In this document: positions 1,749-31,534 of the stretch, piece by piece
How positions within the stretch are numbered: the first letter of the stretch is position 1
Layout: each line of letters begins with the position of its first letter
Assembly (NCBI GenBank): GCA_017610245.1
Contig: JAFCCK010000001.1
Span: 1-39,772, forward strand
Length of the DNA stretch: 39,772 bases
From: Candidatus Iainarchaeum sp.
GTDB lineage: Archaea > Iainarchaeota > Iainarchaeia > Iainarchaeales > GCA-2688035
Direction: 5' to 3'
Notes under the pieces: model-generated
Databases searched by the model: none
The model's input: only the letters and a program-made list of their open reading frames with translations
Told to the model about the DNA's origin: nothing
Made by a program: the position numbers and the translations under genes

Positions 1749-4652
1749 CTAGTAGTCCAGTTTTAAGTACGCCCCTAATGTGTACACTTTGCTGCTTGCA
1801 ATGTTTTCAGCATAGTCCAAGGCATAACCGTAAGTAAGAGTTGAGAGACTTTCCTCCCGAGCCCCCGTATCTTTACGAATTACTGTAGTAAAGCTTGTGT
1901 TCTCAATGAACCAGATGTAAGTTCCGTCTGTTGCACATCCGAATGGGTACCAGGCTTCAGCTAGTGCTCCGTACGAAGAAGCATTGGCAAGCTTGTACCA
2001 ACAGCCGTTTGTTATAGCTGAAGGATAGTGCCAGGTAAGGTGAAAGTTTGTTCCGTCCCAAGCCAGGCCTCTTCCTATCGGGCCATCATAACTAAGCTGG
2101 CCCTCTGGAAACCAACCCATTTGAATTTCTGTGGAGATTGTTGTAGGCGTTGCATTGAATTTGTAAAGCACCTTGTCCCTGTTTGTTTCGCCCTTTGTTG
2201 TATAAGTAGCGTAAAGGTTTGAGCCATCCCACTCGCAATCTGCCCAGAGGTTTCCTGTTGATTCTGTCCCGGTAATTGTGTGTGTCTCATCAAGCGAGCC
2301 GTCTGCGTCATCTATTTTGTACCAGGTGCCATACGTTCCCAAGTCTGAAAGAATCCACAAGTCGCTTCCGTCAAAACAAATTCCCACAAAGGTTCCATAC
2401 GTGCTTACTGAAAAATCGTAAGTTGCTGCAGCTGCTATTCCATAGTCCCCTGCCACATGCTTTGCTATCCTGTTTGTTGTTCCGTCAGTATTTGTACTCC
2501 AAAGAGTTGTCCCGTCGCCACAGCAGCTCTGTGGATCATAGCCTGATGCTCCGCAAACTGTTTCCATATTCAGAGCCGCACTTATTGAAATCAAGTCTGC
2601 ATTGAATTGCATTAAGAACCTTGTACCGTCCCTCACTGCGAAGAACCTTGAGATTGCAGAACAATAACCAGCGCCAGTTTTAGCATACGTTCCGCTCCCT
2701 CCATAATAAAGCTCGTCCGGAAGCCTTTGCGTAGCAGAACAATATACCCAAATACTATTAATTGCTGAAGAAGAACCGTCCGGTTTTACTCCAACAACAA
2801 AGTTGGCTCCATCGTACGCCAGGCCCCAAAGCGCTGTTCCTGCTCCTGCCGGCAGTGAAAAATTAGAATCCTCTACGGTCAAATCAGAAGCATTCCTTTG
2901 GCTTATTCTTCCGTTTGTAGCATCAACCACCCACAGGTTTGTTCCGTCATGCGCACAGTCCCTGATGTCTATTCCAAGCGTTGCAACAAGTTCCGAAGCA
3001 GAACCAGTAATCGAATCCATAGTATAAATTTCGCTGTCAGAATTTGTTGTATAAAAAACATTTCCGTCTTTGTAGAATGTTACGCCATAGGCATTTCCTC
3101 CCCAGGGAGTGCCGAAACGCCAGTATTCCTTGAATGTCAAATAATCGCCGAACCATACCTCTACAAAAGTCCAAGGCCTGTAAACAACTATCTCCGCTTT
3201 TTTTGTTGCAAACACTAGAGCATCAAACTCATCCATTGTAACCTTGAATTTTAAATCGTTCTTGTCGCCTGTGCTGCTTGCGAATGTGTGTTCTATTGCA
3301 GCATCATCCTCTGCTCCGTATGGGTCAAGCTCTTCCCAAGTGGCTCCTTTGTCATTTGAAACATAGTATTTGTTTCCATCATTTCCAGAATATTCCTCGC
3401 GCACAAAAGGCAAGCACTTTGTGTAATTCGCATCACCCACTATGGAGTCTGTGATTTCTGCTGTTGCTGACGAGCTTGGGTTTCCAATCTGCAAAGAGGA
3501 ATCCGTTGTATAGGTATTGGTAAAAGTCCAGAAGTCGTCCTGGTCTTTTGTGAATTTGTAAACATAACTCTCCTCATAGTTGCCGGAGTTAGCAAACTCA
3601 ATGCTATCCTTTGTTTTTTCGTACAGCTCTTTATAGAACGCTGAAGTGTCCTGCTCATCCTGCACTAGCATTACGGTTGTTTTGAAGCCAGAGCTTTTTG
3701 GCTCATAGCTGTGGTTGACATGTCGCACTCTGTAAGAGGTTCCGCTCTCTCCGATTTCGGAAACATTCAGCGTAATTGTTTTCCCGGGAACAACTCTCTC
3801 ATCCCCGTAAATTACTGCCAAGCCTCCCCACTCGCTTTCCTTGTCCTCGAGCAAAGCAGCATCGCTAATTGATTGCACCAGGCTTGCAGTGTCCATTCCT
3901 GCATTCTTTATTATTTTCATTACCTTGCCGTACTTTGCAATGCTATCCTCATCCTGTTCTGTTTTGAACAGCTGCACTTCCTCAACCATCTTGCCATAGG
4001 TTCGGATATAATTTCGCACTGTTTTCCAATCAATGCCCAGGCTAATGTCCTCAACATTTCCCCCATCCCCGGAATCAATACTCACCTCATTAGCCCCGGG
4101 GCTGCCTGTAAAATGCAGCACATCATCAAAGTTAACCCATGAAAAATACTGTGCCTTCACGCAATAGTTTGCAATCAGTTGGTTTAGAAAAACATGGTCT
4201 AAGAATTCTGTACCAGGCACAATTCCTGCAGTAACAACTCCGCCCGTGTTGATTGACGGAACACGCGCATTGACCTCCGCTATAATAATATTTCCAAGGT
4301 CGGTATTTGTATAAGAATTAATTGTAAAATTTTCCATCAACAAAACCCAGGTTCCCCTGCCACTGATTGTAACAGTGGCTCCTGCTGATTTGTTGTAACC
4401 TTTCTTTACTTTCTCAACTCGCCCATGGAATGTTCCAACTACTCCCTCGCTCACATATCCCAGGTAAATCTTTACATCGTCATGGTAGGCAAAAAAATCA
4501 TTGAAAGTGCCTGCTCCATTTTCAAGCTTTACAGTGAAAGAACTAGCCTGAGAATTAACAGGCAGGGACACAGAGAGTTTTTCAACTACGTTATCTGCCT
4601 TTATGCTAACATCATTTATTTTTAAATCGTAATCCGGTTCTATCCTAGTCAT
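1749..4652 (-). CDS. Large tail or baseplate-associated protein with C-terminal beta-propeller-like repeats (putative receptor-binding protein)
   Basis: 967 aa, immediately downstream of tape measure protein (TMP) and a Dit-like gene. The C-terminal half holds about 6 repeats of DG(T/S)xLW... (DGTNLWVVDATNG, DGTTLWSTNTDG, DGSDLWILSDLG, DGSNLYATYTT, DGTNFHLTWHY, DGTYIWFIENT), which is typical of propeller blades. Confidence 0.55.
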   Translation of the reverse strand: MTRIEPDYDLKINDVSIKADNVVEKLSVSLPVNSQASSFTVKLENGAGTFNDFFAYHDDVKIYLGYVSEGVVGTFHGRVEKVKKGYNKSAGATVTISGRGTWVLLMENFTINSYTNTDLGNIIIAEVNARVPSINTGGVVTAGIVPGTEFLDHVFLNQLIANYCVKAQYFSWVNFDDVLHFTGSPGANEVSIDSGDGGNVEDISLGIDWKTVRNYIRTYGKMVEEVQLFKTEQDEDSIAKYGKVMKIIKNAGMDTASLVQSISDAALLEDKESEWGGLAVIYGDERVVPGKTITLNVSEIGESGTSYRVRHVNHSYEPKSSGFKTTVMLVQDEQDTSAFYKELYEKTKDSIEFANSGNYEESYVYKFTKDQDDFWTFTNTYTTDSSLQIGNPSSSATAEITDSIVGDANYTKCLPFVREEYSGNDGNKYYVSNDKGATWEELDPYGAEDDAAIEHTFASSTGDKNDLKFKVTMDEFDALVFATKKAEIVVYRPWTFVEVWFGDYLTFKEYWRFGTPWGGNAYGVTFYKDGNVFYTTNSDSEIYTMDSITGSASELVATLGIDIRDCAHDGTNLWVVDATNGRISQRNASDLTVEDSNFSLPAGAGTALWGLAYDGANFVVGVKPDGSSSAINSIWVYCSATQRLPDELYYGGSGTYAKTGAGYCSAISRFFAVRDGTRFLMQFNADLISISAALNMETVCGASGYDPQSCCGDGTTLWSTNTDGTTNRIAKHVAGDYGIAAAATYDFSVSTYGTFVGICFDGSDLWILSDLGTYGTWYKIDDADGSLDETHTITGTESTGNLWADCEWDGSNLYATYTTKGETNRDKVLYKFNATPTTISTEIQMGWFPEGQLSYDGPIGRGLAWDGTNFHLTWHYPSAITNGCWYKLANASSYGALAEAWYPFGCATDGTYIWFIENTSFTTVIRKDTGAREESLSTLTYGYALDYAENIASSKVYTLGAYLKLDY

Positions 4653-5086
4653 GGAAGTCCCGTTTCCTCAATTTTTATTTTATACTCCCAATGTGCGGTC
4701 AACTCAACCTCCTTCAGTTCAAGGATTCTAACTTGAACTGCAAGGTCAGTGTAGCCCTGGAAAGCCAGCACATCATGGTCCTGGTAATAAGCTCGCATTA
4801 TTGCCATGTTCGCATCCCTAGTTGCACCTTCAAAAATTCCCTTGACTTCGTAAACTGTCGAATCGCTGCCAAGATACTGGCGCTTGGAGTTTTTTGAGCC
4901 CAAGATTGAATGCTTTGCAGTCCGCTTGTAATACTTCGGCTTTATGCCGTCAAAATCTACAATAAGCGTAAGGGCTTCGAGAGTTATTTCTCCAGCTAGC
5001 TGCAGGATAGCATCAGCTGCAAAGGTCTTCGTTCTTCCGTCCTGAACTAGGACAGCATCCATTGAAAATGTTTTAGTCAGCGCCAT
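4649..5086 (-). CDS. Distal tail protein-like (by position). N-terminus carries two copies of the TKTFxADAxL repeat.
   Basis: 145 aa, directly after TMP with a 4-nt overlap into the next gene. Begins MALTKTFSMDAVLVQDGRTKTFAADAILQ, the same repeat unit as the 909- and 309-aa proteins. Confidence 0.45.
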   Translation of the reverse strand: MALTKTFSMDAVLVQDGRTKTFAADAILQLAGEITLEALTLIVDFDGIKPKYYKRTAKHSILGSKNSKRQYLGSDSTVYEVKGIFEGATRDANMAIMRAYYQDHDVLAFQGYTDLAVQVRILELKEVELTAHWEYKIKIEETGLP

Positions 5087-9720: not shown

Positions 9721-9986
9721 TACTTAGTCCCCTCCCGGTCTTTTTCCTTTTTCTCTTTCCTGCCAGGCTCTGTTTTCTTTACCACAACATCAGCTGTGAT
9801 TTCTTTTTCCTTTTCTTTTTCTGGAGCAGCTTTCCTGGCACCTGTCGCTGCTTCATAATTGCTGTTTGTGAGGATCGCTTTTCCTACGTCCTCAGGGAAA
9901 TCCCTCTCATCGCTGGCCTTGTGAATCCAATGGACTCCAGGGCCCTGCATATTAAGTTCTCCCCCTATTTTTGCTCGAATCCTCAT
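9720..9986 (-). CDS. Hypothetical Lys/Glu-rich small protein
   Basis: 88 aa. The ORF ends on the same base (9720) where the downstream gene starts. Confidence 0.35.
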   Translation of the reverse strand: MRIRAKIGGELNMQGPGVHWIHKASDERDFPEDVGKAILTNSNYEAATGARKAAPEKEKEKEITADVVVKKTEPGRKEKKEKDREGTK

Positions 9987-10894: not shown

Positions 10895-11254
10895 TCATCC
10901 CGTATCCGTGTCGAAGAAGTCGCTGTTTACTTTCTCCATTCCGGAATCCGGGTCGGCGATGGCTTTGCTATAAGAGTCAAGGTATTCCCTTGCTTGCTTT
11001 TTCAAAATTTTGGAAATATTGCTTTCGTTGGGTTCAGAATCTGTAAAAAAAAAGTCATACACCTTGCCTGCTGCATAGCAGGCCGTTGCGTATTTTATCA
11101 GGTCAGGAATTGTTCCAGAATAAGTTTCGTCTTGAATTCCATTAACCCAAACTTCTGCTTCGGTGATTCGGAGCTCAACATTGTCATCGGACATCTCTCC
11201 GTCATCCATTTTTATTTGTTCCCAAACATCTAGTACTGTGCAATACGTTCCCAT
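10895..11254 (-). CDS. Head-tail connector or adaptor (gp6-like)
   Basis: 119 aa. The N-terminus LDVWEQIKMDDGEMSDDNVELRITEAEVWV fits the DD..L..I.AA...E pattern of gp6-type connectors. Lies just downstream of the capsid genes. Confidence 0.45.
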   Translation of the reverse strand: MGTYCTVLDVWEQIKMDDGEMSDDNVELRITEAEVWVNGIQDETYSGTIPDLIKYATACYAAGKVYDFFFTDSEPNESNISKILKKQAREYLDSYSKAIADPDSGMEKVNSDFFDTDTG

Positions 11255-11348
11255 TACTATTACCTCGCGTTCCCGGTCAAAACCGGTTCAGGCAGCGACT
11301 GCCCCTGCCAGGCTACTCCTGGACTTATTACATTATTACTTTCTTACT

Positions 11349-11573: not shown

Positions 11574-11640
11574 AAAAAAAACCTCCAGGTCTGTTTTCTA
11601 TTTTCTTTTCTCCTTTAGAAAAAAAATAAAGGAGGGGAAA

Positions 11641-12498
11641 TTATATCCCCGTTATTGAAATCAATGCGTTTGCCTCGTACACTGCTGGCACACTTCTCAG
11701 GAATGTGTTGAAGCTGTAACTCTGATTAGAGAGCACATAGTCCTCTTCCACATCTAAATCCTCTGCAACAATCAGCTCTGCAATGTCTGCACCTGATTGC
11801 ATCAGCAATCCTGTTCCTGTAGCAATGTTCCTGTCAACTCTTACTGTTATTCCGAGCTTTTGAATTTTCTCGAGCTCAGTTAGGTCAGTGTTTGCAGCCC
11901 TTTGGTAGGTCTCCAAATATTGGTCCTTGTGCAACAGTAAATCTGTCGGCTCAAATTCATCGCCCATTGCAAGCATGGCCCCCATTATTGCTAATGGAAT
12001 GTTTGCAACAGTTGCCCATGTAGCTCCCCCGAAGGTTCCACCTACACTAGCATACAGGCCGCTGACTCCTGAGAGCGCGTTCTGGAGAATGATTGTTTCA
12101 TTCTCTTTATTCTGTGTCAGCCTACTTGCTCTCCGAGCCATAACAGTATTCAAAGCTTCGCCGTACTCTCTACTTGAGAGCAGGTCTTCCCTTGCAATAT
12201 TGAAAGACACACCGTGCTTCAATACTGGGATAAGTTCCCTTGCCTTGTCTATTGCCATTCCTGGAAAGTTTGTGGCTTTCGCAACAACGTCTGCAGCTCC
12301 TACGTCTGTCAGAGTATCAAAGCCGAACTCTTGCCTGCCGATTGAAACCTTTCTTACGGGGCACACTTGCCTTCCAGCAAGGTTCACGTATTTAGGCTCA
12401 ATGACAGCCGAGCGTACTTCTCTAAACTCTTCAGTTGAAAGAGATGCATCGTTCAAAATTTGGTTTAATTGTCTCATATGATGAGCACCTTCCCCCAA
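11641..12498 (-). CDS. Major capsid protein (HK97-fold-like)
   Basis: 285 aa, directly after the scaffold and a decoration-like gene. Composition and length are typical of small HK97-type MCPs. SD present. Confidence 0.6.
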   Translation of the reverse strand: MGEGAHHMRQLNQILNDASLSTEEFREVRSAVIEPKYVNLAGRQVCPVRKVSIGRQEFGFDTLTDVGAADVVAKATNFPGMAIDKARELIPVLKHGVSFNIAREDLLSSREYGEALNTVMARRASRLTQNKENETIILQNALSGVSGLYASVGGTFGGATWATVANIPLAIMGAMLAMGDEFEPTDLLLHKDQYLETYQRAANTDLTELEKIQKLGITVRVDRNIATGTGLLMQSGADIAELIVAEDLDVEEDYVLSNQSYSFNTFLRSVPAVYEANALISITGI

Positions 12499-12896
12499 GC
12501 TGTAGATGCAATTATTGTATGTGCAATTCCTACAACCTTGTAGCTTGTTGCTGAACCAACTGTGAGTGGTTCAACTATTCCTGCTGCAGCACAACTTACA
12601 TGTCCGCCTTCTGCGACACCTGTAGTTGAGTACATGGCGTAAATTTTACCAGGCACCAAAGCTGCAACGGTTACAACATCGTTGTCCGCATACTCTGCAG
12701 TTCCAGATTTCGCATAAATTTTCTCGTCCGGTACAGCAATTCCCTGCACGAATGCAGTGTCAGCTGCAGTTAACTTTACATCGTTTGCTGCTGTTCCTTT
12801 TTCCACAAGTTTTCCGAAGCCAATGGCTCCATCAGCTTTCCTTGTGAAGGTCGGTACAACAAATGATGGATTGAAATCATATACTCTATCCGCCAT
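12474..12896 (-). CDS. Small head protein (decoration or DUF2190-like), Ala/Gly/Val-rich
   Basis: 140 aa, between scaffold and MCP. Beta-rich, low-charge composition. Confidence 0.4.
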   Translation of the reverse strand: MADRVYDFNPSFVVPTFTRKADGAIGFGKLVEKGTAANDVKLTAADTAFVQGIAVPDEKIYAKSGTAEYADNDVVTVAALVPGKIYAMYSTTGVAEGGHVSCAAAGIVEPLTVGSATSYKVVGIAHTIIASTAWGKVLII

Positions 12897-13457
12897 TTAC
12901 TTCACCTTCCTTGCATCGGCATATATGTTTTCGCGTGCTTTTTTCAATTCGTCAATCTCACCGTCGCTGTCATGAAAGAGCGTCTTAACCTGCTTTTTCC
13001 CAATAGCGTCTGTTTTTTTACTCAGTTTCTCCATGGAGTCCTCGAGTTTCTTTACTGCGTCGCCTTTCTTTTCAGCCTCTTCCTCAAGCTCTTTATTTTT
13101 TTCTTTGAGCTTTTCGTTTTCAGCTTTCAAGTCAGCATCCTCAGCTTCCTCATCTTCTCCGTTGCCTTCGCCTTCGCCCTCTTTAGGTTTCTCGCCTTCT
13201 TTGGGCTTGGCTTCCTCGCCTTCCTTTGGCTCCTCTCCCTCTTTAGGCTTTTCGCCTTCAGCTGGATCCTCGCCTTCGTCTGCGATTTTCTTTTCAAGGG
13301 CATCAATCTTTTTGTCCTTGTCCGCAACAGAGTCGTTGAGTTCCTTAATCCTTTCTACGGCTAAGGTCTCAAGTCCTTCAGAGGAATCTGCTTCTAAAAC
13401 TTTCTGTAATTCACTCATAATTTTATCCCTCCATAAACATCTGCCTTCATCTATCAC
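12897..13457 (-). CDS. Scaffolding protein
   Basis: 186 aa, highly acidic and coiled-coil, with KPKEGEEPKEGEEAKPKEGEKPKEGEGEGNGEDEE repeats. Immediately precedes the capsid genes. SD is GGAGGGA. Confidence 0.65.
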   Translation of the reverse strand: MIDEGRCLWRDKIMSELQKVLEADSSEGLETLAVERIKELNDSVADKDKKIDALEKKIADEGEDPAEGEKPKEGEEPKEGEEAKPKEGEKPKEGEGEGNGEDEEAEDADLKAENEKLKEKNKELEEEAEKKGDAVKKLEDSMEKLSKKTDAIGKKQVKTLFHDSDGEIDELKKARENIYADARKVK

Positions 13458-13463
13458 AATCTG

Positions 13464-13477
13464 CTTAATATAGTTTT
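13464..13477 (-). promoter_or_regulatory. Conserved promoter-like element, copy 1 of 3 (BRE/TATA-like AAAACTATATTAAG on the minus strand)
   Basis: The plus strand reads cttaatatagtttt(cgg)tttttt. The same roughly 27-35-bp block recurs at 14244-14257 and 25003-25016, each just upstream of a minus-strand structural gene start. Confidence 0.5.
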
Positions 13478-13548
13478 CGGTTTTTTATGGCAAAATCATG
13501 GAAATCAGCTGGATTTAGTCCAATGTATCGTAACAAAGTGACAGAGAA

Positions 13549-14214
13549 TTAGAATGCGTTGAGGCCCACACCGTCTGCAGTGCCTGCGCGGCCTTGCATT
13601 ATCAAGGCTAAGTGGTCAAAGAAGAAATTCTCCTGGCGAATGTCATAATGCTGTCCGTTGAATTCCCCCGGCACGTGCACTTCCTTACATCTGAATCCTG
13701 TGCTCACATCCTCTAAGCGCTTTGCTTTTGTGTCCTTAATTAGCTGTTTGTTTTTTTCATTCTTTTTAATGAACACGTCCCCATAAGAACGCTTTCCTTT
13801 TTTGTCCCACTTAACAGAATCAAAAACAATATGGCCTACTTGCTGGCCCATGCTTGTAACTACTTTCTCCGGAGGATGCACGTATGCTGTTATAGGTTTG
13901 CCCCTTAAAGAATCCAGTGCTTTCTTCAGTTCCTCAGCCGACTTGTAGTGCTTGCCATTGTCGTACGGTAGCACTCCTTCCTTTGTGAAAACAACATCAT
14001 GGAAAGTAACGCCCTTCTCTGATTCAGTCCAGGCGTCGCCTTCAATGGCATCGCCTTTTGTTCCAATAGAATCAGTATGATCTATAAGTTTTTTTCCTGC
14101 GCCTTGCTCTTCAAGTTTTTTAATCAAAGCCTTATCTGCCAGGGCCCTGTCATTCTTTTTTGCCTGAGCTTTCAGTTTGCCAAACAAAGCCAGGTCGCTT
14201 AAAGAATCATTCAT
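13549..14214 (-). CDS. Head morphogenesis protein (possibly a prohead protease; unassigned)
   Basis: 221 aa ORF immediately upstream of the scaffold gene. Preceded by copy 2 of the conserved promoter-like element. Confidence 0.4.
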   Translation of the reverse strand: MNDSLSDLALFGKLKAQAKKNDRALADKALIKKLEEQGAGKKLIDHTDSIGTKGDAIEGDAWTESEKGVTFHDVVFTKEGVLPYDNGKHYKSAEELKKALDSLRGKPITAYVHPPEKVVTSMGQQVGHIVFDSVKWDKKGKRSYGDVFIKKNEKNKQLIKDTKAKRLEDVSTGFRCKEVHVPGEFNGQHYDIRQENFFFDHLALIMQGRAGTADGVGLNAF

Positions 14215-14243
14215 AATAAACCACTCTTACCTTCTGCATTCTC

Positions 14244-14257
14244 CTTAATATAGTTTT
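14244..14257 (-). promoter_or_regulatory. Conserved promoter-like element, copy 2
   Basis: ctccttaatatagttttgccattttt on the plus strand. It lies 30-45 nt upstream of the ATG at 14214. Confidence 0.5.
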
Positions 14258-14383
14258 GCCATTTTTCAGGCAAATTTGTGCGATAAGCTCCTAGGCCCTG
14301 CATTTTCCTAGTCAATCCTTCCCATCCAAGCCCTGCACGTGCTCTTACCTTCCACAAACTCCTTATTATACTTTATTCTTTTT

Positions 14384-17113
14384 TTAAGAAATAAACGCCT
14401 CGAGAGAGTCTTTTCTAGTTTTTACTGTAAGATTATCCTTCCTAGTTGCCACGTCCAGGGAATCCTTTCTCGTTGTAACCTCTACTTGTTCCTTTCGGAG
14501 AAAAACATCCAATTGGTATATGGCAAGCGGCGCATAAAGAATTGCATCCCCAGTAAATGTTTTGTATGCTCTGCCTGTCAGTACAGCATCAATTGAGAAT
14601 GTTTTTGTAACTACTATCCGCAGCATAGCATCGAGTGTAAAGGTCTTTGTTGCCTGCAGCATTATCCAGGCATCAGCAGTGAAAGCCTTTATTGTTGTCA
14701 GCTGCAGTATAGCGTTAATCTCAAAGGTTTTCAGGCTCACCGACCTTAGTACGGCATCCGCGCTGAATGTTTTGGTAACAACTATACTTAGTATAGCGTC
14801 TGCAGTAAAGGCCTTGCTCCCTACCTGCATTAAAATGGCATCAGCCTGGAATGTTTTTGTTTCCTGCTTTCTGAGGAAAGCGTCCGCAGTAAAAGCCTTT
14901 GTGAACACTGCTCGCAAGTATGCGTCTGCCTGGAATGTTTTCGAATATGTCCCTTGCAGTAATGCATTTGCAGTAAATGATTTGGAGTAACTTATTCTGA
15001 GTAATACATCTGCAGTAAAGGCTTTTGTCAGCCTGTCAACAACTACCGCATCTGCTATGAATGTTTTCGTTTCTGTTGCTTGTAACCAGGCATCGGCACT
15101 GAATGTTTTGCTGTACCTATTTACCAAAATACCGTCAGCCAAGAATGTTTTTGTTTGCACGGCTTGCAGCACTGCATCTGCTTCGAATGTTTTCGTGTAC
15201 GTTCCTTTTAGAATTGCGTTGATTGAAAAGTTTTTAGCGTCTGCCGCTTCCAGGATTGCGTCCATGGAAAAACTTTTTGTAAGGCCGCTTGCTTTCAGGA
15301 TTGCATTTGCTTCGAAAGTTTTGGTGAGCCGTTCAACAACTACAGCATCAGCCTCGAATACTTTTGTAAATGTGGCTAGGAGAATTGCGTCCGCTTCAAA
15401 TTCTTTGGTTCCAACTATCTGCAATGTAGCATCTGCACTGAAGGTCTTTGTCAGGTCAGAGGCTTTCAAGAAAGCATCTGCGATGAATGTTTTTGTTGCG
15501 GTCCCGAACAGTATTGCATCAGCTGAAAATGCTTTAGTAAACACCGCTCGCAAGTGAGCATCTACTGTGAATGTTTTCGTGAGCCTATTTATTAAGATAG
15601 CGTCAGCCTCAAAGGTCTTGCTGAATGTGGCCTGCAGCACAGCGTCAACATCAAATGTTTTAGTCAACCTGTCAACAAGTACAGCATCGGCCTCAAAGGT
15701 TTTGGTTGCTGTTGAAACCAGGAATGCGTCCGCTGAAAATGTTTTTGTCAAGCCCTGTGCCTGCAAGTATGCATCCACTATAAAAGTTTTTGTAAGCCGA
15801 TTTATCAGGAGTGCATCGGCTGTGAAGGTCTTGGTTACTACAGGGGATATGAGTATTGCATCTGCTGCAAAGGTTTTAGTCAGGCCAGATTGTTTCAATA
15901 ATGCATCTGCCTCGAATGACTTAGAATAGGTCCCCTTGAGAATTGCATCAGCTGTAAAATATTTAAAATTTGTACCAACCCATGCATCCATTGTGAAAGT
16001 CTTCGTCAGGCCAGAAGCTTTTAGTATAGCATCTGCTGTGAATGTTTTTGCGTATCTTCCTAATTCATCAAATTTAACAGCTATATCTGTCCAAGTGGCA
16101 GAAGAAGACCAATCAGTACCACTATTTGCTGATTCGGTATAAGTACAGGTGGCTCCGCCGTATGTTTCATTAACATATACTGCACTATTTACAGTAGCCA
16201 TGGCCGATACTCTCCAACAATTAGAACTATCTACAGAATTTGGAGATTTAAGGACTATTCTGTACTGACTTCCATTTGCAAAAGTTATAGGAGAACTAAA
16301 AGATGCGTACGTCCAGTGGTAGCTTGTAGATTCAGATGTTCCTGCCGGAGCTATTTCTCCACTATCTATAACATCTTCGGCATCCGGGCCTCTAATTTCA
16401 TATTGTAATGCACCTGCCGGAGTTCCTTGTCTTCTTATAATAATTTCTAATCCTCTAACGGTTTGCGCCCCGGCGATTGTAATTAATTCTCCTTTCCAAT
16501 ATGCTCCATAACAGTTTTCAGTGTAGCCATAAGTGTAAGGCTGGCCTTCATACGTTGCATCATCATACTCAATGATAAATACTCCTGAGCCACTAGTACC
16601 GCCCCAATCAGCACCGCTGTTAGTTGATTGTTTAAATTCTAAACTCGAATCAACATAATTAGAATCATTATCTGCTTGGTTTCTTGGAGTGCCAATAACG
16701 GGTGCGGTGTAAATACCTCTCGATAAGTGTGCATGATTACTTCCGTCTATTGTTCCGCTTTGATACTGAATTCTGATTGCATAAGTAACTCCAGCAGTTA
16801 AATCGACTGTTTCTCCTAAAGTGAAAGTATTCCATGCTCCATCTGCAATTTGTTGGTCTACATATCCGGAGTTAGTTGCCCCAAGCCAGGTGCCATCCGG
16901 CTCATCCGAACCATCAACTGCTTGTAATCCAATTCTATAAGTCGGACTTGTTCCTGTAACTGTGTTTGAATCTATGCGAATAGCTGAAACAGTTTTTGTG
17001 TTTTGAGCCGTGAATATTATGGCTATTTGGTCGGTAGCAGCATCTAATGGAATTGATGCTACAGTATAATTCAATGCAGATTCATGTCCAAAAAGATAAT
17101 TACTTGTTCCCAT
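14384..17113 (-). CDS. Large fibre or adhesin-like protein: N-terminal globular domain plus about 38 tandem 14/15-residue repeats (TKTFxADAxLxxxx)
   Basis: 909 aa. Residues about 345-880 are repeats (TKTFTADAILISPVV, TKTFTADALLINRL, TKTFIVDAYLQAQGL, ...). These are visible at DNA level as a degenerate 42/45-nt periodicity (gcatc.gc....gtgaa.gttttngt) across 14500-16080. The C-terminus has 3 copies of TRKDSLxVxx. Confidence 0.7.
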   Translation of the reverse strand: MGTSNYLFGHESALNYTVASIPLDAATDQIAIIFTAQNTKTVSAIRIDSNTVTGTSPTYRIGLQAVDGSDEPDGTWLGATNSGYVDQQIADGAWNTFTLGETVDLTAGVTYAIRIQYQSGTIDGSNHAHLSRGIYTAPVIGTPRNQADNDSNYVDSSLEFKQSTNSGADWGGTSGSGVFIIEYDDATYEGQPYTYGYTENCYGAYWKGELITIAGAQTVRGLEIIIRRQGTPAGALQYEIRGPDAEDVIDSGEIAPAGTSESTSYHWTYASFSSPITFANGSQYRIVLKSPNSVDSSNCWRVSAMATVNSAVYVNETYGGATCTYTESANSGTDWSSSATWTDIAVKFDELGRYAKTFTADAILKASGLTKTFTMDAWVGTNFKYFTADAILKGTYSKSFEADALLKQSGLTKTFAADAILISPVVTKTFTADALLINRLTKTFIVDAYLQAQGLTKTFSADAFLVSTATKTFEADAVLVDRLTKTFDVDAVLQATFSKTFEADAILINRLTKTFTVDAHLRAVFTKAFSADAILFGTATKTFIADAFLKASDLTKTFSADATLQIVGTKEFEADAILLATFTKVFEADAVVVERLTKTFEANAILKASGLTKSFSMDAILEAADAKNFSINAILKGTYTKTFEADAVLQAVQTKTFLADGILVNRYSKTFSADAWLQATETKTFIADAVVVDRLTKAFTADVLLRISYSKSFTANALLQGTYSKTFQADAYLRAVFTKAFTADAFLRKQETKTFQADAILMQVGSKAFTADAILSIVVTKTFSADAVLRSVSLKTFEINAILQLTTIKAFTADAWIMLQATKTFTLDAMLRIVVTKTFSIDAVLTGRAYKTFTGDAILYAPLAIYQLDVFLRKEQVEVTTRKDSLDVATRKDNLTVKTRKDSLEAFIS

Positions 17114-17443: not shown

Positions 17444-18373
17444 TCACGCTCTCCCTCTTAGCTCAGCCTCAATATTTGGATTCCTAAGTTGTACAATCAT
17501 GTGGTACCTTGCCATTGGCACATAGAGAATCGAATCGGCTGAAAATGTTTTTATTAAATTACCTGTCAACACTGCATCCAAAACAAAGGTCTTTGTCCCA
17601 ACTAATCTTAGAACCGCATCCGCTGTAAAGGTTTTTGTTAATACCAGGACAACCCAGGCATCTGCAATAAATGTTTTTGTCTGTGTTGCTTTCAGAATTG
17701 CATTTGCCCCGAAGGTTTTCGTTGCTATTAACCTCAATACAGCGTCCACACTGAATGTTTTTGTTTCAGTTTTCCTAAGCACTGCATCTGCAGTGAACGC
17801 CTTAATATATGTTCCTTTCAGGATTGCGTTCACTGAAAAAGTCTTCGCCGTTACAGCAGTCAATATCGCATCAGCAGAAAATGTTTTTGTAATTCCAGAT
17901 TCCTTCAAATAGGCGTCCGCAGAAAATGTTTTTGTGAGCCTGTTAACTAATACACTATCCGCAATGAATGTTTTGGTATTTACTGCTGAAACCAGTATTG
18001 CATCAATCGCAAAGGTTTTTGTTTCCGTGGCCTTCAGTATTGCATCAACTGAAAAGGTTTTAGTTTGGCCCAAGGCTTGCAGGAAAGCGTCAGCTTCAAA
18101 CGCCTTAGTGAATTCCTTCCTCAAGAAAGCATCCGCTGTGAATGTTTTTGTAAGCCGATTCACTAGGACAGCATCAGCTTCCAGAGCCTTCGTTGATGTT
18201 GCCTTCAGTATGGCGTCAGCTGTAAAAGTTTTTGTTCTCCTGTTTATCAGAATAGCGTCCGCTGTGAATTCATTATAAATTACGCCATAGTACGATTGCC
18301 CGTACCTTCCAGTTCCATACAGTGCTGATTCTGCCATAGCCTCATCCTCTGAGCCTAAGAATCCAGCACACAC
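17444..18373 (-). CDS. Paralogous repeat protein (about 18 TKTFxADAxL repeats)
   Basis: 309 aa with the same repeat unit as the 909-aa protein. The C-terminal motif DSILYVPMARYHMIVQLRN is shared (DAILYAPLAIYQLDVFLRK in the 909-aa protein). Confidence 0.65.
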   Translation of the reverse strand: MCAGFLGSEDEAMAESALYGTGRYGQSYYGVIYNEFTADAILINRRTKTFTADAILKATSTKALEADAVLVNRLTKTFTADAFLRKEFTKAFEADAFLQALGQTKTFSVDAILKATETKTFAIDAILVSAVNTKTFIADSVLVNRLTKTFSADAYLKESGITKTFSADAILTAVTAKTFSVNAILKGTYIKAFTADAVLRKTETKTFSVDAVLRLIATKTFGANAILKATQTKTFIADAWVVLVLTKTFTADAVLRLVGTKTFVLDAVLTGNLIKTFSADSILYVPMARYHMIVQLRNPNIEAELRGRA

Positions 18374-18590: not shown

Positions 18591-19280
18591 TCAGTCGTTG
18601 TAAATAAAAGGCCAGTAACTTCCTCTCGCTATTTTTATGTAATCTAAATGCACTTCTGTTTCAGGGGGGCTTGCCGGATAATTCCAAGGTCCAATTTGCG
18701 TAAGTCCATTATAGATAGTATTTGGGTCTGCAGAATCTCCGGCTCCGTCATAAACCCAATCAGCACCATCGTCTTTTGAAAAAAAGGAAAAGGAATTCTG
18801 CCTAAATAGAATTCTGATGGTCCACCAGCTTACATTGTCGAATGTTTTGTCGAATTGCTTTACATAAGCATTGGTTGAATCGAAGTACCAGACGCTGTCT
18901 TCTGAAATTGCGACCGTATGCCTGTAGGTTCCTTGATATACGGATAAAAGAAAACAGTCCAATGTACCGACTGTTCCATCAAATCCGCCAGCCAGCTTGT
19001 CGAATTTAATTTTAAATTCAACAGTAATGTTAGGACTACGCTGAAATGCTCCTGCAAAATTTTGAAGAACAGCTGCGCTGTTTGTTCCGCCTGAATCTCC
19101 TGCAACCAGATGAGCTTGACCAGCTGGGTCTATTTCTATTGTTGCAGTTCCTAATGGGTTTTGTGTCCATCCGGTTAAATCATCAAAATCATCATCAATG
19201 CTTAAGAATCTCAAATCATCTACCTCGTGCGTAAATCCTAGAGTTTTTCGAACTGCCATAACATCACCTAAATATCCCAA
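18591..19280 (-). CDS. Paralog 3 of a tandem triplicated 220-aa family (putative jelly-roll or lectin-like adhesin)
   Basis: 229 aa. Shares PAGQ.HLVAGD.GGT.S, FKIKFD(K/Q)LAGG, DNVSW(W/Y)TIR(I/L), NYPASP.ETEVH.DY.KIA with its two neighbours. Confidence 0.6.
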   Translation of the reverse strand: MGYLGDVMAVRKTLGFTHEVDDLRFLSIDDDFDDLTGWTQNPLGTATIEIDPAGQAHLVAGDSGGTNSAAVLQNFAGAFQRSPNITVEFKIKFDKLAGGFDGTVGTLDCFLLSVYQGTYRHTVAISEDSVWYFDSTNAYVKQFDKTFDNVSWWTIRILFRQNSFSFFSKDDGADWVYDGAGDSADPNTIYNGLTQIGPWNYPASPPETEVHLDYIKIARGSYWPFIYND

Positions 19281-19936
19281 TCAATCGGATAGTATTCTCC
19301 TGCAGCTATTTTAAAATAATCAATATGCACTTCCGTTTCAGCTGGGCTTGCTGGATAGTTTTGAGCTATCAGCTGAATCAATCCAGGAAATCCTGCATTT
19401 GGATCTCCATCATCGCAAGAGCCCCAATAAGCCCAATCTCCATCATCATCTTTTATAAAAAGGATTATTGATTTCGCAAAATGAATAAGCCTTATTGTGT
19501 ACCACGAAACATTATCCAAAGAAGCAGTAAATTGCTGGACATAACCATTCGTAGAATCATAAAACCACACGCTATCATCAGAAATCAGAACATAATTCAC
19601 ATGGACTCCTGTCAAAATACCTATTAAAAAACAGTCCAATGTAGCGGTAGTTCCATTATAACCTCCAGCTAATTGGTCAAACTTAATTTTAATTTCCGTT
19701 GTAAAAGATGAAAGGTATTGTTGAAAAATATTGCTTCTATATGCTCTTGCGGTGCTGTCAGTTCCGCCTGCATTTCCGGCTTTTAAATGAAGCTGGCCAG
19801 CTGGACTTATCTCTCGCAATGAAGTTCCTATTCCGTCAAGTACCCAGCTTGCAGTATCATCCCAAGGCTCGTCGATGTGCAAATACCGTATATCGTGAAT
19901 GTCCTGCAACCGAGCTAATTCTTTGTACTCACTCAT
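19268..19936 (-). CDS. Paralog 2 of the triplicated family
   Basis: 222 aa, about 40-45% identical to its neighbours. 4-nt start/stop overlap with paralog 1. Confidence 0.6.
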   Translation of the reverse strand: MSEYKELARLQDIHDIRYLHIDEPWDDTASWVLDGIGTSLREISPAGQLHLKAGNAGGTDSTARAYRSNIFQQYLSSFTTEIKIKFDQLAGGYNGTTATLDCFLIGILTGVHVNYVLISDDSVWFYDSTNGYVQQFTASLDNVSWYTIRLIHFAKSIILFIKDDDGDWAYWGSCDDGDPNAGFPGLIQLIAQNYPASPAETEVHIDYFKIAAGEYYPIDWDI

Positions 19937-20592
19937 GGCATAATCATCCCCGGTGCGAACTTCACATAGTCCATGTGAATTTCTGTTTCAGCAGGACTTG
20001 TTGGGTAATTAATTACCCACATTAAAATTCTTCCATTAAGTATGGTATATGGGTCTGCGTTTCTACAACGACCTAAAAAGTTCCAGTCAGCGTCATCATC
20101 TTTAGCAAAAACTAAGGTAAAATTCGAATCAAAAATCAACCTGATGGTGTACCATGAAACATTGTCGAAAGTGGTGTCGAACTGTTTTACATGGACATTT
20201 CCAGCAGTGTAGTACCATACGCTGTCAGAAGTAAAGGTAACCACATGCATATATACTCCTGAATAATGTCTAAATTGGAAGAAATCGTTTGTCGCACCGG
20301 GAGTCCCAGTCCATCCTCCAGCTAACTGGTCGAATTTAATTTTGAATTCTACAGTCATTGTTTGGAGATTTGTCACTAAGCTATCAAGATACTTACCGCC
20401 AGTACTGTCTGTTCCACCTGCATCTCCAGCTACCAGATGCAATTGTCCAGCTGGGCTTTCTTCAACAGTGCGTGTTCCTGTGCCGTAAGTTGTCCAATCA
20501 GTAATATCTTCCCAATCTTCATCCTTTATGAGATTTCGGGTATCTACTATATCAGAATAATGAGCCCTTCCTTTGTACGCAGTCATAATCAT
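19933..20592 (-). CDS. Paralog 1 of the triplicated family
   Basis: 219 aa with the same conserved blocks. 4-nt overlap with the upstream gene. Confidence 0.6.
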   Translation of the reverse strand: MIMTAYKGRAHYSDIVDTRNLIKDEDWEDITDWTTYGTGTRTVEESPAGQLHLVAGDAGGTDSTGGKYLDSLVTNLQTMTVEFKIKFDQLAGGWTGTPGATNDFFQFRHYSGVYMHVVTFTSDSVWYYTAGNVHVKQFDTTFDNVSWYTIRLIFDSNFTLVFAKDDDADWNFLGRCRNADPYTILNGRILMWVINYPTSPAETEIHMDYVKFAPGMIMP

Positions 20593-21130: not shown

Positions 21131-21644
21131 CAGCAGCTGCTTGAGTATTATCTCTTTTCACAATTACTGCCCCTACAGAAAAATGCTGCTCGTCATAGCA
21201 TTTCGTTTCTGCCGGAATAGGATTCCCAATCGCATTGTAAGGAGCCTCCCTCCATATGCCTGAAAGCTCAACGTGCCCGTCCTCAAAAACGTAAGCTATA
21301 TCCTGCACGCTCCGGCCGCCAATGGTTGCCTGCCATCCAACTAGATAAATAATTGACCTGCCAATAGGCTTAGCTTTAATATCTCTGGCCCCTCCACCAA
21401 ATTTGTATTTCTCCAGGACTCTACGCCTGTAAATTAGTCTTCGACCTGGCTCCAGGTACATTTTGAAAAGAAGCTGATCCGGCACCGCTTTCGGTTGAAT
21501 AATTCCGGCTTTCCTTATTTCAAAAGCAGAAAGCTTACTCCGGTCAATGTCCGGGTACTTGTTTTCTTTTCCATCTTCCTCGTATTGAGATAATTCTTTG
21601 CCGTCATTATAAACAGCCTTCCAGTAAATGCTTGAGTGCATCAT
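21087..21644 (-). CDS. Hypothetical protein. The C-terminus carries a single TQAAADAILVKK motif resembling the TKTFxADAIL repeat.
   Basis: Best start is ATGATG at 21644 (SD GGAGGAG; ATGA overlap with the stop of the homing endonuclease (HE) gene). 185 aa. Confidence 0.45.
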   Translation of the reverse strand: MMHSSIYWKAVYNDGKELSQYEEDGKENKYPDIDRSKLSAFEIRKAGIIQPKAVPDQLLFKMYLEPGRRLIYRRRVLEKYKFGGGARDIKAKPIGRSIIYLVGWQATIGGRSVQDIAYVFEDGHVELSGIWREAPYNAIGNPIPAETKCYDEQHFSVGAVIVKRDNTQAAADAILVKKKDGDKSD

Positions 21645-22021
21645 TCTCTCCTCCGTAATGTTTCCGAGAATTTCTGAGCAGTTTCTTTCTTCAGAACAAG
21701 TTCTGGCAAAATCCATTCAGTAAATCTTAAGCAATCATAGAAAGAACGAAGCGTCCAACAGTACTGTGGACTCCAGTGTTTTTTCCAGCTCTTTTGTCGC
21801 CCTCTTCTCTGCAAAGAGCCGCCTAAATTAGAAACAATATAATCCAGGACGAATTTGTCCCTTTCAACTAAAGCAATCCTGATAAAAGGGCTTACTCTTT
21901 TCCTATCTTCAACATAGAAATTGCCTTCACCATCAATCATTCCGGCAAGCCAGCATTTAAATTTCTCGCTTACTTGGAAATTAAGTCTGCATTCTTTTCT
22001 GTTTGTTTTATTGGAGTCCAT
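21641..22021 (-). CDS. LAGLIDADG homing endonuclease (free-standing)
   Basis: 126 aa containing LAGMIDGEGNF (the LAGLIDADG motif), followed by a typical basic C-terminal region. Confidence 0.7.
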   Translation of the reverse strand: MDSNKTNRKECRLNFQVSEKFKCWLAGMIDGEGNFYVEDRKRVSPFIRIALVERDKFVLDYIVSNLGGSLQRRGRQKSWKKHWSPQYCWTLRSFYDCLRFTEWILPELVLKKETAQKFSETLRRRE

Positions 22022-22964: not shown

Positions 22965-24989
22965 TTAGCTCCCTCCGAAATATGCTACAATTGTGCATCT
23001 GCAATTTGGATCTTCCAATTCTGGCGGCGTGTTGTTCAGGTCAAAAATGTGGCCGTTCAAGAACGCATGTGTTGGCCGCACCGCAGTGTCGCCAGCAGAA
23101 AGGTATTTTACTCTTTTCACTTTGCCCGAATCCCTGTAAGATTGTTTAATGGCTTGCGTCATTGCTCTGTGGGATTCCGTTCTCGCGAGAGTATCGGCAT
23201 TATGTTTTGCCCCATCAACAATGAGCTGAATTTTCTTTCGCATTTGTGGAATGCCCTCTCCAGCTAACATGCTTTCCTGGACTGCAAAAAGAGTTCTCTT
23301 TGTAACGTCTGTTCCATAAGAATTTACAAAAACGTAATTCGATTGCCTTAATATTTTCTTAATCTGGCCTGCCTTCTCGCTGGCTATTATGTTTAAGTTC
23401 AAAAGTAATTCAGACCTTTCCCATCCATACTGCCAAGAAGCGTTCACATTCTTATCCACAACATCCTTGATTTTCTTGGCTCTGGCTTTCTCAATGAGTT
23501 CAAGCTCTCTCTCCAAATCCCCAAAGTCATCGGTGAGAATTCCCTCAACCTCGCTAGCCTTTATTACTTTCATTATTTCATTAATTGAAAACAATGCTTT
23601 CAAATCCTGTGCATAGTCCTCGCCTAATTGAATAACCTCTGAGGCTACTAGATTGGTTTCCTCAGAATATTCCCAATCAGGGAACAATGCATCCACTTTA
23701 GCATCTGTTTTGGCCTCTTGCTCTAATTCTTTTTTTATCTCCTCAGGATTCCATACTCCGGATGTAATACGAATCGATTCTGTTTCCGCTGTAAGCTTGT
23801 CAATCTCTGCCTGTTCCTTTGCGTTCATTTCCTGCAACGGGTTCCATTCAACTTTATAGTCGCCATCAGCTACTTGCTTCGTTCCTTGAAGAATTGTAAT
23901 CAGCTGTTCAATGACTGGCGTAAAATCGAGTTCCTGCTTTGCGGAAATATCAGAATAATAATCTTTGAGGTTTGTTTCGCTTCCGGTAACTGCCCCTGCT
24001 GCAACGCCCTCTACAATCTGCATGGGAATATCAAAACTCATGGCCACTGCTTTCAGCGCAACATTCCAATACTGTTCTGGATTCAGTGCGCTTTTTCTCA
24101 CGCCCACGTCTTTTATTTCAGTTGTTTCATCGCTTACCCAGGCTGTCTTGGAATTTGTTTCCGCTGCCTGTGCCTTTATTGCTTTCATTGCAGCAGGCTT
24201 TCCTTTCTTTTTTATATAGTGAATGAAGCCAGCAGCGTTTCTATAGAATGCCTGGCCCGTGCTCCAAATAACATTATCCAAAACAACTAGGTAATTGTAA
24301 GCTGGCCGCATATAGCCAATGCCTTCTGGATCGTTCCCGTACTGGTTAACCGGCATATAAATGAATCTGCTTGCATGCACCTCAATTGCGGGCCCTGTTC
24401 CTAGCTTCACCATTGCGCCAACTATCTCGCCATAGTGTTCAGAGTTGCTATCCTTCTCAATAAGCAGTTTTCTTACATTGGTTCTTGTAATAATGCTCAA
24501 GTAATCCAAGCTCTTCGGATTCTCAATTTCTTCCTCAAGGCCTGCCTCATCGCTGTAACCCAACATGAGCAAGGCATAGCCCTCAACCATTCCAACCTTA
24601 TATGTTTCCTTTAAAATTTTCTTCAAGCCCAGAGCCCGTGTTTCGCCTTCAGTTATCCATTTCTTTTTTGAAGAAAATACTTTGCTTACGTCTTCAATTA
24701 GTGTTTCATTCTCTGATTCAATAGTGAACCAATTATCGAAAGTGTCAGCGGCAATTTTGTTAACAAGCTTTCTGCCAATCCCGTTTCCCCTGTACGCATC
24801 TACAAGCTGCTCGTTTAAAATATTAGTATTCCAAAGCGTACTCTTACTAGCCGCATCTGAAGCCTTGCTTGATTTGGCATCAGGATTATATTCTGGAATA
24901 AGTCTATCTACAAGAATCCGCTTGCCAGTATTGATTGCATCGTTGAACAGGGACATAAAATTTCCTCGCGAGAAACTAACTGCCCTCAT
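22965..24989 (-). CDS. Portal protein fused to a Mu-F / SPP1 gp7-like head morphogenesis domain
   Basis: 674 aa. The C-terminus DTAVRPTHAFLNGHIFDLNNTPPELEDPNCRCTIVAYFGG matches the MuF-family motif (RP.H..L.G......P..NCRC). The N-terminal 450 aa are portal-sized and follow TerL. The true start may be Met12 (24956) if copy 3 of the promoter element is used. Confidence 0.65.
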   Translation of the reverse strand: MRAVSFSRGNFMSLFNDAINTGKRILVDRLIPEYNPDAKSSKASDAASKSTLWNTNILNEQLVDAYRGNGIGRKLVNKIAADTFDNWFTIESENETLIEDVSKVFSSKKKWITEGETRALGLKKILKETYKVGMVEGYALLMLGYSDEAGLEEEIENPKSLDYLSIITRTNVRKLLIEKDSNSEHYGEIVGAMVKLGTGPAIEVHASRFIYMPVNQYGNDPEGIGYMRPAYNYLVVLDNVIWSTGQAFYRNAAGFIHYIKKKGKPAAMKAIKAQAAETNSKTAWVSDETTEIKDVGVRKSALNPEQYWNVALKAVAMSFDIPMQIVEGVAAGAVTGSETNLKDYYSDISAKQELDFTPVIEQLITILQGTKQVADGDYKVEWNPLQEMNAKEQAEIDKLTAETESIRITSGVWNPEEIKKELEQEAKTDAKVDALFPDWEYSEETNLVASEVIQLGEDYAQDLKALFSINEIMKVIKASEVEGILTDDFGDLERELELIEKARAKKIKDVVDKNVNASWQYGWERSELLLNLNIIASEKAGQIKKILRQSNYVFVNSYGTDVTKRTLFAVQESMLAGEGIPQMRKKIQLIVDGAKHNADTLARTESHRAMTQAIKQSYRDSGKVKRVKYLSAGDTAVRPTHAFLNGHIFDLNNTPPELEDPNCRCTIVAYFGGS

Positions 24990-25002
24990 CTATGGCAATC
25001 CC

Positions 25003-25016
25003 CTTAATATAGTTTA
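25003..25016 (-). promoter_or_regulatory. Conserved promoter-like element, copy 3 (upstream of the portal gene)
   Basis: cccttaatatagtttatgctttttttaa on the plus strand, which reads aaaaaaagcataaactatattaagggg on the minus strand. Confidence 0.5.
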
Positions 25017-25057
25017 TGCTTTTTTTAACGTTTTGAGAGCTATTTGGATTGTTTTTA

Positions 25058-31306: not shown

Positions 31307-31534
31307 TTACTCCTCCTGCGGTTTTACTATATCTGCAAAGGCTACTCGCTGCAGTACTTTTGTAATTTCAACCTCGTGCCTTTCGCCTTTCCTTGCGCCT
31401 TGGATTATTACTACAAATCCCTCGACCTTTGCAACGCCGTCGCCGTCCTTACCGATACCGATAATATCAACCTCGATGCGCTCGCCTTGCTGCACTGGCG
31501 GCTGCCTTGCTCCTCTTTCTTCTTTTCCTTCCAA
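31307..31534 (-). CDS. Stand-alone TRAM-domain protein
   Basis: 75 aa with a TTG start and SD AGGAGG. GERIEVDIIGIGKDGDGVAKVEGFVVIIQGARKGERHEVEITKV is a TRAM OB-fold. Free-standing TRAM proteins are characteristic of archaea. Confidence 0.6.
   Translation of the reverse strand: MEGKEERGARQPPVQQGERIEVDIIGIGKDGDGVAKVEGFVVIIQGARKGERHEVEITKVLQRVAFADIVKPQEE

Follow-up and report, generated by a model that had tools for sequence, protein, structure and literature searches.

What is the element that recurs ahead of the head genes in this virus genome, and which transcription machinery would read it? The sequence in question, hereafter the window, is the whole 39,772-nt stretch of contig JAFCCK010000001.1, and a first-pass annotation of it had proposed that a 35-bp promoter-like element, archaeal rather than bacterial in character, is repeated three times upstream of structural genes. 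Here we report that the element is present in four copies, all of them intergenic, on the coding strand and ahead of the portal, protease and scaffold genes, and that its position, orientation and register are conserved in eight genomes. The reading that we favour, to which we give a probability of roughly 55%, is that the four elements are late promoters of the head module, combining an archaeal-type core that would be recognised by TBP, the TATA-binding protein, and by TFB (transcription factor B) with flanking blocks that are specific to the virus.

The three copies described in the first-pass annotation lie where it had placed them, as exact minus-strand occurrences of the 13-mer AAACTATATTAAG at 13464-13476, 14244-14256 and 25003-25015. 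With up to two mismatches this 13-mer finds six matches against 1.7 expected, a number that none of 100 shuffled sequences reached. The count of three was nevertheless incomplete: a repeat finder revealed a fourth, degenerate copy (AAAGTATAATAAG, 14362-14374, minus strand) directly 3′ of the stop codon of a 909-aa open reading frame (ORF). The repeat itself is real but its length had been underestimated, as the conserved unit begins 14 nt upstream of an A/T box and ends, counting from the first base of that box, 31 nt downstream, a length of ∼46 bp. On the minus strand, copy 1 (13441-13486) lies upstream of the scaffold, cement and capsid genes, with the box TATATTAA at 13465-13472, a predicted archaeal-type pyrimidine-purine start at ∼13442 and the scaffold ATG at 13418. 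Copy 2 (14221-14266, box 14245-14252) precedes the DUF2213/Pa193_gp24 protease gene, whose ATG at 14214 is 38 nt from the start of the box, and copy 3 (24980-25025, box 25004-25011, predicted start ∼24981) is located between the large terminase and portal genes. The degenerate copy 4 (14339-14384, box TATAATAA at 14363-14370) comes straight after the end of the gene for the 909-aa repeat protein and is itself followed by a conserved non-coding leader.

Specificity was assessed with a position weight matrix built only from the copies in other genomes, which was scanned over both strands at thresholds of 12-15 bits alongside a shuffled control. The four window copies score 44-52 bits, the rest of the window stays below threshold and the shuffled sequences yield none. 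Frequent copies inside coding regions had been named at the outset as an observation that would speak against a promoter; the genome-wide search found no copy inside the window genes and none on the non-coding strand, and this objection therefore does not apply. Alignment with related viruses, for which loci of eight environmental genomes were compared (labelled L121, L123 and so on below), places the element in every genome fetched, on the coding strand and with the same position and orientation; the proteins of the relatives in which this placement recurs are 54-86% identical. The slots in these relatives are the terminase-portal interval, the intervals before the protease and scaffold genes, and a “copy 4” slot beside the large repeat-protein gene. 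The copy 1 slot is occupied in L129/L130, L121, L123, L125 and L127/L128, the copy 2 slot (at the same 38-nt distance from the start codon) in L129/L130 and L127/L128, and the copy 3 slot in L134, L135, L123, L229 and L230. Once the identity of the large terminase (TerL) falls to 50% or less the element is gone, and gene order differs there too. An exact pattern scan of IMG/VR with AAACTATATTAAGNNGA returned scattered single chance matches only, and the region upstream of the protease gene in the ANME-1 virus ANMV-1 holds nothing like the element.

Twenty copies, drawn from the eight genomes, could be aligned without gaps from -14 to +31, the first base of the A/T box being numbered 0. Upstream of the box an A-tract at -14 to -9 (-44 to -39 from the predicted start) is followed by two G or C positions at -8 and -7 and then by WWAA (W, A or T) at -5 to -2, in which A-3 is found in 20/20 copies and A-2 in 19/20; the N3 spacer of the first-pass annotation is 4 nt long in this common register, a trivial correction. 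The box is an all-A/T 8-mer in every copy, of the form T-A-T-A-W-W-W-A, with T0, T2 and A7 invariant, A3 present in 19/20 copies and A1 in 18/20. Its variants are TATATTAA, TATAATAA, TTTAAATA, TTTATTAA, TATATAAA, TATTTATA and TATAAATA, the last of which is the exact box in three of the 20 copies. Downstream of it come G8 (18/20), G11 (17/20), G15 (19/20), A20 (20/20) and T23 (20/20), a purine-rich run at 26-28, and finally a pyrimidine at 29 (Y29, 17/20) and a purine at 30 (R30, 20/20), which form a Y-R step 26.5 bp from the box centre. Copy-2-type elements only (14253-14274 on the minus strand, L129 and L128) also show a palindrome, TTGCC-N7/8-GGCAA, around the A-tract; it might fold as a hairpin or be bound by a protein dimer.

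As the conserved block reaches toward the genes, it might be imagined to act in the transcript, as a 5′ leader, processing site, riboregulator or short upstream ORF, and short ORFs can be drawn in some copies (MKADVYGGIKL in copy 1). These ORFs are not conserved, however, and any plausible start has half of the conserved positions on its upstream side. Stop codons occur in the three frames in 7, 10 and 19 of the 20 copies, with no frame open throughout, and the idea of a coding remnant (the “NYIK” frame) was rejected, the frame being broken in several genomes. RNAalifold found no consensus pairs in 16 copies, which led us to reject an RNA hairpin, and Rfam gave no match anywhere in the window. 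The element is thus neither coding nor an RNA structure, and we regard an RNA-level role as very improbable. A structured RNA does follow copy 4, where a conserved non-coding stretch of ∼65 nt (14278-14340, minus strand) begins 2-3 nt after the predicted start. Its predicted fold, from only four sequences, has three stems and 14 pairs, one of them compensatory (CUAGG/CCUAG versus CCAGG/CCUGG), and the stretch may function as a small RNA or else as a leader with a regulatory role; counterparts are found at ∼9870-9940 in L129, ∼6985-7050 in L121 and ∼12225-12295 in L135.

The part of the element nearest the genes evolves in concert within each genome. Identity over the +16 to +31 block is 64% between copies of the same genome compared with 53% for the same slot in different genomes (permutation p = 0.0006), an effect that is absent from the box and upstream parts. 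Either gene conversion has homogenised the copies, or the block has co-evolved with a genome-specific reader; the co-variation within genomes points to a viral late regulator, and a virus-encoded protein of this kind is the explanation we favour. Homogenisation as from gene conversion would also suit a DNA site with no promoter function, whether a recombination or module-boundary repeat that shuffles cargo or a site for a structural or packaging protein. The copies flank a hypervariable cargo of 5-9 kb between portal and protease, and the cassette formed by copy 4 and its leader stands before the large repeat-protein gene in L121 and L135 and after it in the window and in contig A. Recombination, on the other hand, needs no fixed orientation, no all-A/T 8-mer, no invariant register and no constant distance to a start codon (38 nt in three genomes). 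It is better viewed as a side effect of repeated promoters, as with the promoter early stem-loop (PeSL) repeats of phage T4, and we consider a non-promoter DNA site improbable.

If the element is a promoter, its layout should tell which kind of polymerase would use it. Among 1,082 mapped starts of Thermococcus onnurineus, an 8-bp A/T TATA box is centred ∼27 nt upstream and an A-rich TFB-recognition element (BRE) ∼33 nt upstream, the proximal promoter element (PPE) appears as an “A at -10”, position -1 is a pyrimidine in 87% and +1 a purine in 93%, and leaders are short (median 12 nt) and carry Shine-Dalgarno (SD) motifs (PMC5316973). With position 30 taken as +1, the box centre of our element falls at -26.5, WWAA at ∼-33.5, A20 at -10 and the Y29-R30 step at -1/+1. 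At the level of sequence, the geometry therefore matches the archaeal grammar at every feature, with the 8-bp A/T box, A-rich BRE, A at -10 and Y/R initiator all in place.

By the same kind of comparison, sigma-70 fits the element poorly. TAnnnT is lacking in or beside the box in seven of the 20 copies, a TG extension never occurs (positions -3 to -1 read AAN, not TGN), and a -35-like TTGCCW is seen in some copies only, at 15-bp spacing and with 0.15-0.64 bit per column, so that the earlier statement that a -35 is lacking was largely right. A consensus promoter scan left the element sites uncalled and found no genome-wide excess of sigma-70-like sites. Two further bacterial forms were tried and rejected: the Bacteroidetes -33/-7 promoter (TTTG...TAnnTTTG), the box having no TTTG end, and a two-box, sporulation-sigma-like arrangement (ATATT...CATA), because no conserved CATA stands at a suitable spacing in the gap-free register. 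Every sequence-level test that was run agrees with the preference of the first-pass annotation for BRE/TATA over sigma-70, but a generic host promoter is too narrow a description: the annotation had missed a fourth copy, the full length of 46 bp and the proximal block that is specific to each genome, which together indicate something more. A generic archaeal TBP/TFB promoter resembles the element in box length and composition, the adjoining upstream A-rich run, the A at -10, the Y-R step at 26.5 bp and short SD leaders. It shows little conservation between box and start or above the BRE, whereas G8, G11, G15, T23 and the A-tract are near-invariant here and the proximal block is genome-specific.

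A bacterial late promoter would require a different parsing, in which the A/T box is a -10-type element with no -35 and is used with a phage activator or sigma-like factor, the start lying ∼12 nt after the first box base. The late promoters that depend on P2 Ogr, Mu C and phi29 p4 provide models for such an activator, and the T4 promoter read by the sigma-like gp55 is just TATAAATA. Thirteen of the 20 boxes contain TATATT or TATAAT, some being exactly TATAAATA, and a purine (G11 or A10) is found at the expected start. Besides the seven boxes without TAnnnT and the missing TG extension and conserved -35, this parsing would put the Y29-R30 step and two invariant positions, A20 and T23, at +8 to +18, where they have no role. 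Nor was any sigma factor, gp55/gp33-like protein or known late-activator family present in the ORFs scanned, where a search for these and other transcription-factor families gave nothing beyond weak winged or plain helix-turn-helix (HTH) matches; many small ORFs there have no detectable family.

The choice between the two polymerases also depends on the host, which is probably archaeal. The window encodes a stand-alone TRAM protein of 75 aa (31307-31534, minus strand) of archaeal type, which matches the archaeal PyTRAM RNA-chaperone model at 3e-17 and the archaeal aIF2-beta TRAM at 3e-13, compared with 1e-5 for the bacterial RlmD TRAM; its structural matches are 1yez from Methanosarcina mazei (3e-12) and 1yvc from Methanococcus maripaludis (1.5e-11). 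Stand-alone TRAM proteins are typical of archaea (PMC5572242, PMC6705878), and a 73-aa homologue is encoded at 5418-5639 in L229, the relative from the Loki's Castle metagenome. The integrase is matched best by the archaeal XerA model and its sole PDB matches are the XerA proteins of Pyrococcus and Thermoplasma, while the archaeal repair HerA model is the best match for a HerA-like ATPase. No endolysin was detected in the ORF family scans, which we count as an archaeal lean, as we do the origin of the relatives in sediment, Loki's Castle included. Three proteins (portal, protease and TerL) have counterparts in ANMV-1, against two (portal and protease) in Listeria phage B054, a comparison that also leans archaeal. 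The deposited annotation of ANMV-1 (KP703175.1) lists a TATA-box binding protein at 12057-12650; no TBP family was detected in the window ORFs scanned.

A substantial body of evidence weighs against an archaeal host and promoter. All of the archaeal-type protein matches are below the curated cut-offs of their families, the structural Pfam families are defined on bacterial phages, and the gene order matches that of Listeria phage B054. Oligo-T is not avoided: runs of T7-T9 occur inside genes on the sense strand, and the ratio of A6+ to T6+ runs is 3 as against ∼8 predicted from composition, making T-runs, if anything, over-represented; avoidance would be expected if the operons were transcribed by an oligo-T-sensitive archaeal polymerase. 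For this comparison we relied on the A:T run ratio and on run location, as a Markov test of T-run depletion, whose model was trained on the very sequence under test, has little power. The GC-rich hairpin and T8 tract after the capsid gene resemble a bacterial intrinsic terminator. Reading TATATT as a -10 with a long leader also yields a coherent layout, in which an AGGAG/AAGGA-like SD precedes the protease ATG by 9-10 nt. No CRISPR or provirus link was found, the capsid protein retrieves its own clade only, and a protease profile run against GTDB genomes found no provirus or bin. Most TerL relatives (38-50% identity) are in bacterial bins of metagenome-assembled genomes; the TerL profile retrieved candidate phyla radiation (CPR)/Patescibacteria, Proteobacteria and Desulfobacterales bins from GTDB together with two archaeal ones (Pacearchaeota, 54%, partial; “uncultured archaeon”, 44%). 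We rejected these bins as host evidence in either direction because, by local tblastn, the contigs share only TerL, with or without a methyltransferase, and have nothing else in common with the virus. Given also the archaeal leaning of the TRAM, XerA-like and HerA-type genes, we judge a bacterial late promoter to be rather unlikely.

Late promoters with an archaeal-type core thus remain the reading we prefer, and we envisage them as two superimposed layers. The first would be a host-type core, in which TFB reads the BRE-like WWAA run, TBP binds the 8-bp TATA box, and the promoter is completed by a PPE-like A at -10 and by a pyrimidine-purine initiator 26.5 bp from the box centre; counted from the first base of the box, transcription is predicted to begin ∼30 nt downstream. 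The second, virus-specific layer would comprise two parts, the A-tract at 9-14 nt before the box and, between box and start, the G8, G11, G15, A20, T23 block; its constraint is far above that of generic archaeal promoters, and it is most likely bound by a virus-encoded late regulator. Copy 1 would drive scaffold, cement and capsid genes as far as the hairpin/T8, a high-output cassette for proteins needed in hundreds of copies. Copy 2 would drive the protease gene through an SD-less leader of ∼8 nt, and copy 3 the portal and cargo genes, the portal and scaffold leaders being 22-40 nt long with strong SD sequences. Copy 4 would drive the conserved structured leader of ∼65 nt and, in L121 and L135, the large repeat-protein gene as well. 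That the four copies represent the late-promoter class of an undescribed clade of temperate tailed viruses in an uncultured sediment archaeon, their proximal block being read by a co-evolving, putative virus-encoded factor, is a fuller proposal that we put forward tentatively.

On a practical level, the element affects how two gene starts should be annotated. The proposal that the portal starts at Met12 (ATG 24956) is borne out by the portals of relatives, which begin at the homologous MS[LVI]..DA and have no counterpart of the upstream 11 codons; the first ATG of the longer ORF (22965-24989) falls inside the element, and the portal-MuF fusion with its corrected start occupies 22965-24956 on the minus strand. 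Similarly, the start of the scaffold gene is ATG 13418 and not GTG 13457, which falls inside the element. The portal 5′ leader carries a 13-mer, TTCTCGCGAGGAA (24958-24970, minus strand), that contains the 8-bp palindrome CTCGCGAG overlapping the SD and is identical in every clade genome (L123, L129, L134, L135, L229 and L230) and in none of the other 226 fetched loci; it may serve as an operator, either of translation or of transcription. At the other end of the head module the hairpin GGGGATATAATTTCCCC and its T8 tract (11619-11650, minus strand) lie directly 3′ of the major capsid gene, with a different but still pairing stem in relatives, and are likely to mark the end of the copy 1 transcription unit.

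The virus to which these elements belong is temperate and siphovirus-like. Bases 1-114 of the window are identical to 39659-39772, as detected by the repeat finder, and the window is therefore a complete genome of 39,658 bp, either terminally redundant or circular. The minus strand carries nearly all of the genes, whose transcription order is small-terminase candidate, large terminase (25058-26410), portal-MuF, cargo, DUF2213 head-maturation protease (13549-14214), scaffold, cement and HK97-type capsid, followed by tail tube, tape measure and a YQBQ-like fibre. The sigma4/LuxR-type HTH protein encoded upstream of the large terminase is probably the small terminase. A tyrosine integrase of ∼270 aa, whose presence indicates that the virus is temperate, is encoded on the plus strand at 39033-39772 and continues at 115-187; it is missing from the ORF table because the gene crosses the window end and terminal-repeat junction. 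Among deposited phages, megablast and tblastn gave no DNA match, left TerL and capsid unmatched and found only 22-30% matches for portal and integrase. No public name was found for any of the window's proteins. Searches with protease, terminase and capsid led instead to a narrow clade of environmental contigs, mostly from sediment, with proteins 52-86% identical, one member of which (L229) comes from metagenome SDBT01 of Loki's Castle. Long contigs with TerL relatives were rejected as clade members, being unrelated larger phages, and a comparison with the literature likewise led us to reject verdandiviruses (∼20 kb, short tape measure) and Bathyarchaeia viruses, neither of which matches the clade.

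Several further features of these genomes deserve mention. The variable cargo that occupies ∼8.7 kb after the portal gene comprises a BppU_N protein, a LAGLIDADG endonuclease, three tandem paralogues and two proteins composed of 14-aa repeats. The paralogous genes (229, 222 and 219 aa; 18591-20592, minus strand) have no family match, and the endonuclease gene lies near them at 21641-22021. The 909-aa protein (14384-17113, minus strand) begins with an N-terminal domain of ∼350 aa and continues as ∼38 tandem repeats of 14 residues (TKTFxADAxLxxxx), and the same repeats occur in minus-strand ORFs of 309 aa (17444-18373) and 145 aa (4649-5086); none of these repeat proteins gave a significant family match, and ORFs of 816-1410 aa occupy the corresponding region in relatives. 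Another conserved, non-coding leader, that of gene 10895-11254, lies at 11262-11330 (minus strand) and reads as three hairpins (GTCCAGG..CCTGGC, GGCAG..CTGCC and CCGG..CCGG), with counterparts at 13850-13933 in L121, 6118-6197 in L127 and 12998-13080 in L125 and apparent compensatory changes. The 15-mer GTTACGATACATTGG is found twice as an exact match (0.01 expected), at 886-900 and 13520-13534 on the minus strand, each time ∼15 nt after a stop codon, and 34 nt separate one of its copies from element copy 1, which lies downstream. In L229, ARAGORN calls a 95-nt tRNA-Ile(GAT) at 9892-9986, on the upstream side of the terminase, with a good T-arm and acceptor 3′ strand; Rfam found no tRNA there and did not confirm the call, and the stretch may represent either a tRNA that has degenerated or a fragment resembling an att site.

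Two further operon starts are likely to lie in a divergent control region beside the integrase operon, at 38660-38715, where outward-facing boxes of generic TATA type can be made out that lack the late-specific flanks. One, TTTATATA (38660-38667, minus strand), is 38 nt before an SD-less 46-aa gene, the same box-to-start spacing as that between the copy 2 box and the protease ATG in three genomes. The other, TTTTATAA (38705-38712, plus strand), is 35 nt before the SD-less start of ORF 38740-39030. A perfect 9-bp inverted repeat, AAGTTATAA-N4-TTATAACTT (38694-38715), overlaps one of the boxes, and the region resembles an operator or a switch for lysogeny.

If the elements are late promoters of archaeal type, they define a late regulon, correct the starts of the portal (Met12) and scaffold (ATG 13418) genes, indicate a viral late regulator and supply independent evidence of host domain, read from sequence alone, for a virus clade that databases cannot place. 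They would also furnish compact strong-promoter parts for uncultured sediment archaea, and would extend the use of repeated, virus-specific promoter cassettes for temporal expression, in the style of halovirus HF2, to a distant, non-halophilic lineage. A dedicated late switch built on TBP and TFB would, if true, provide the first promoter grammar for such viruses together with a sequence-based assignment of their host domain. Should the host be bacterial, the element would be an ordinary activator-dependent late promoter.

Among known systems, the T4 late promoters, with TATAAATA at -10, no -35 and dependence on gp55, gp33 and gp45, resemble the element in being specific to late genes and in having an 8-bp all-A/T box that some element copies reproduce exactly. 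They differ in lacking such extended conserved flanks and in having a less variable box (compare TATATTAA, TTTAAATA, TTTATTAA and TATTTATA here); no gp55, gp33 or clamp homologue was detected among the ORFs scanned in the present virus, which is temperate with a genome of 40 kb. Promoters of the T7 group co-evolve with their own RNA polymerase, and the PeSL repeats of T4 are recombination substrates. Both invite comparison with an element whose copies are more alike within than between genomes and flank variable cassettes, although this virus encodes no single-subunit RNA polymerase and the element has no stem-loop.

The closest precedent for the element is the intergenic-repeat promoters of HF2 and other haloferacalesviruses, which would make it an element of a known kind in an unrelated, uncultured lineage. 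In those viruses, class I repeats of 56-58 bp and class II repeats of 29 bp were established as promoters by reporter assay and primer extension; they contain BRE, TATA, PPE and initiator (INR) motifs together with extra conserved motifs, and related viruses have them at the same positions and in the same orientation (Russ, Pfeiffer & Dyall-Smith 2021, PMC8707807). Class II is confined to the late morphogenesis module, virus-encoded readers were proposed by the authors, and a TATA box in the integrase module that lies outside the repeats, and is accompanied by inverted repeats, is active in both directions (PMC8707807). The present element is likewise a multi-copy intergenic repeat of conserved position and orientation, has promoter motifs and extra blocks, and corresponds to the HF2 repeats in its sequence-level features; the TATA box and inverted repeats at 38660-38715 resemble those of the HF2 integrase module. 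The two differ in lineage, GC content and habitat, and in that the window has a single class of element, whose four copies all belong to the head module. Activity and starts were measured in HF2, whereas here the promoter is read from sequence and the host domain is inferred. We noticed no similarity between the HF2 repeats and our element, the sequences being unaligned, so that the likeness is one of organisation: a core of host type repeated ahead of late genes and framed by blocks that a viral protein may read.

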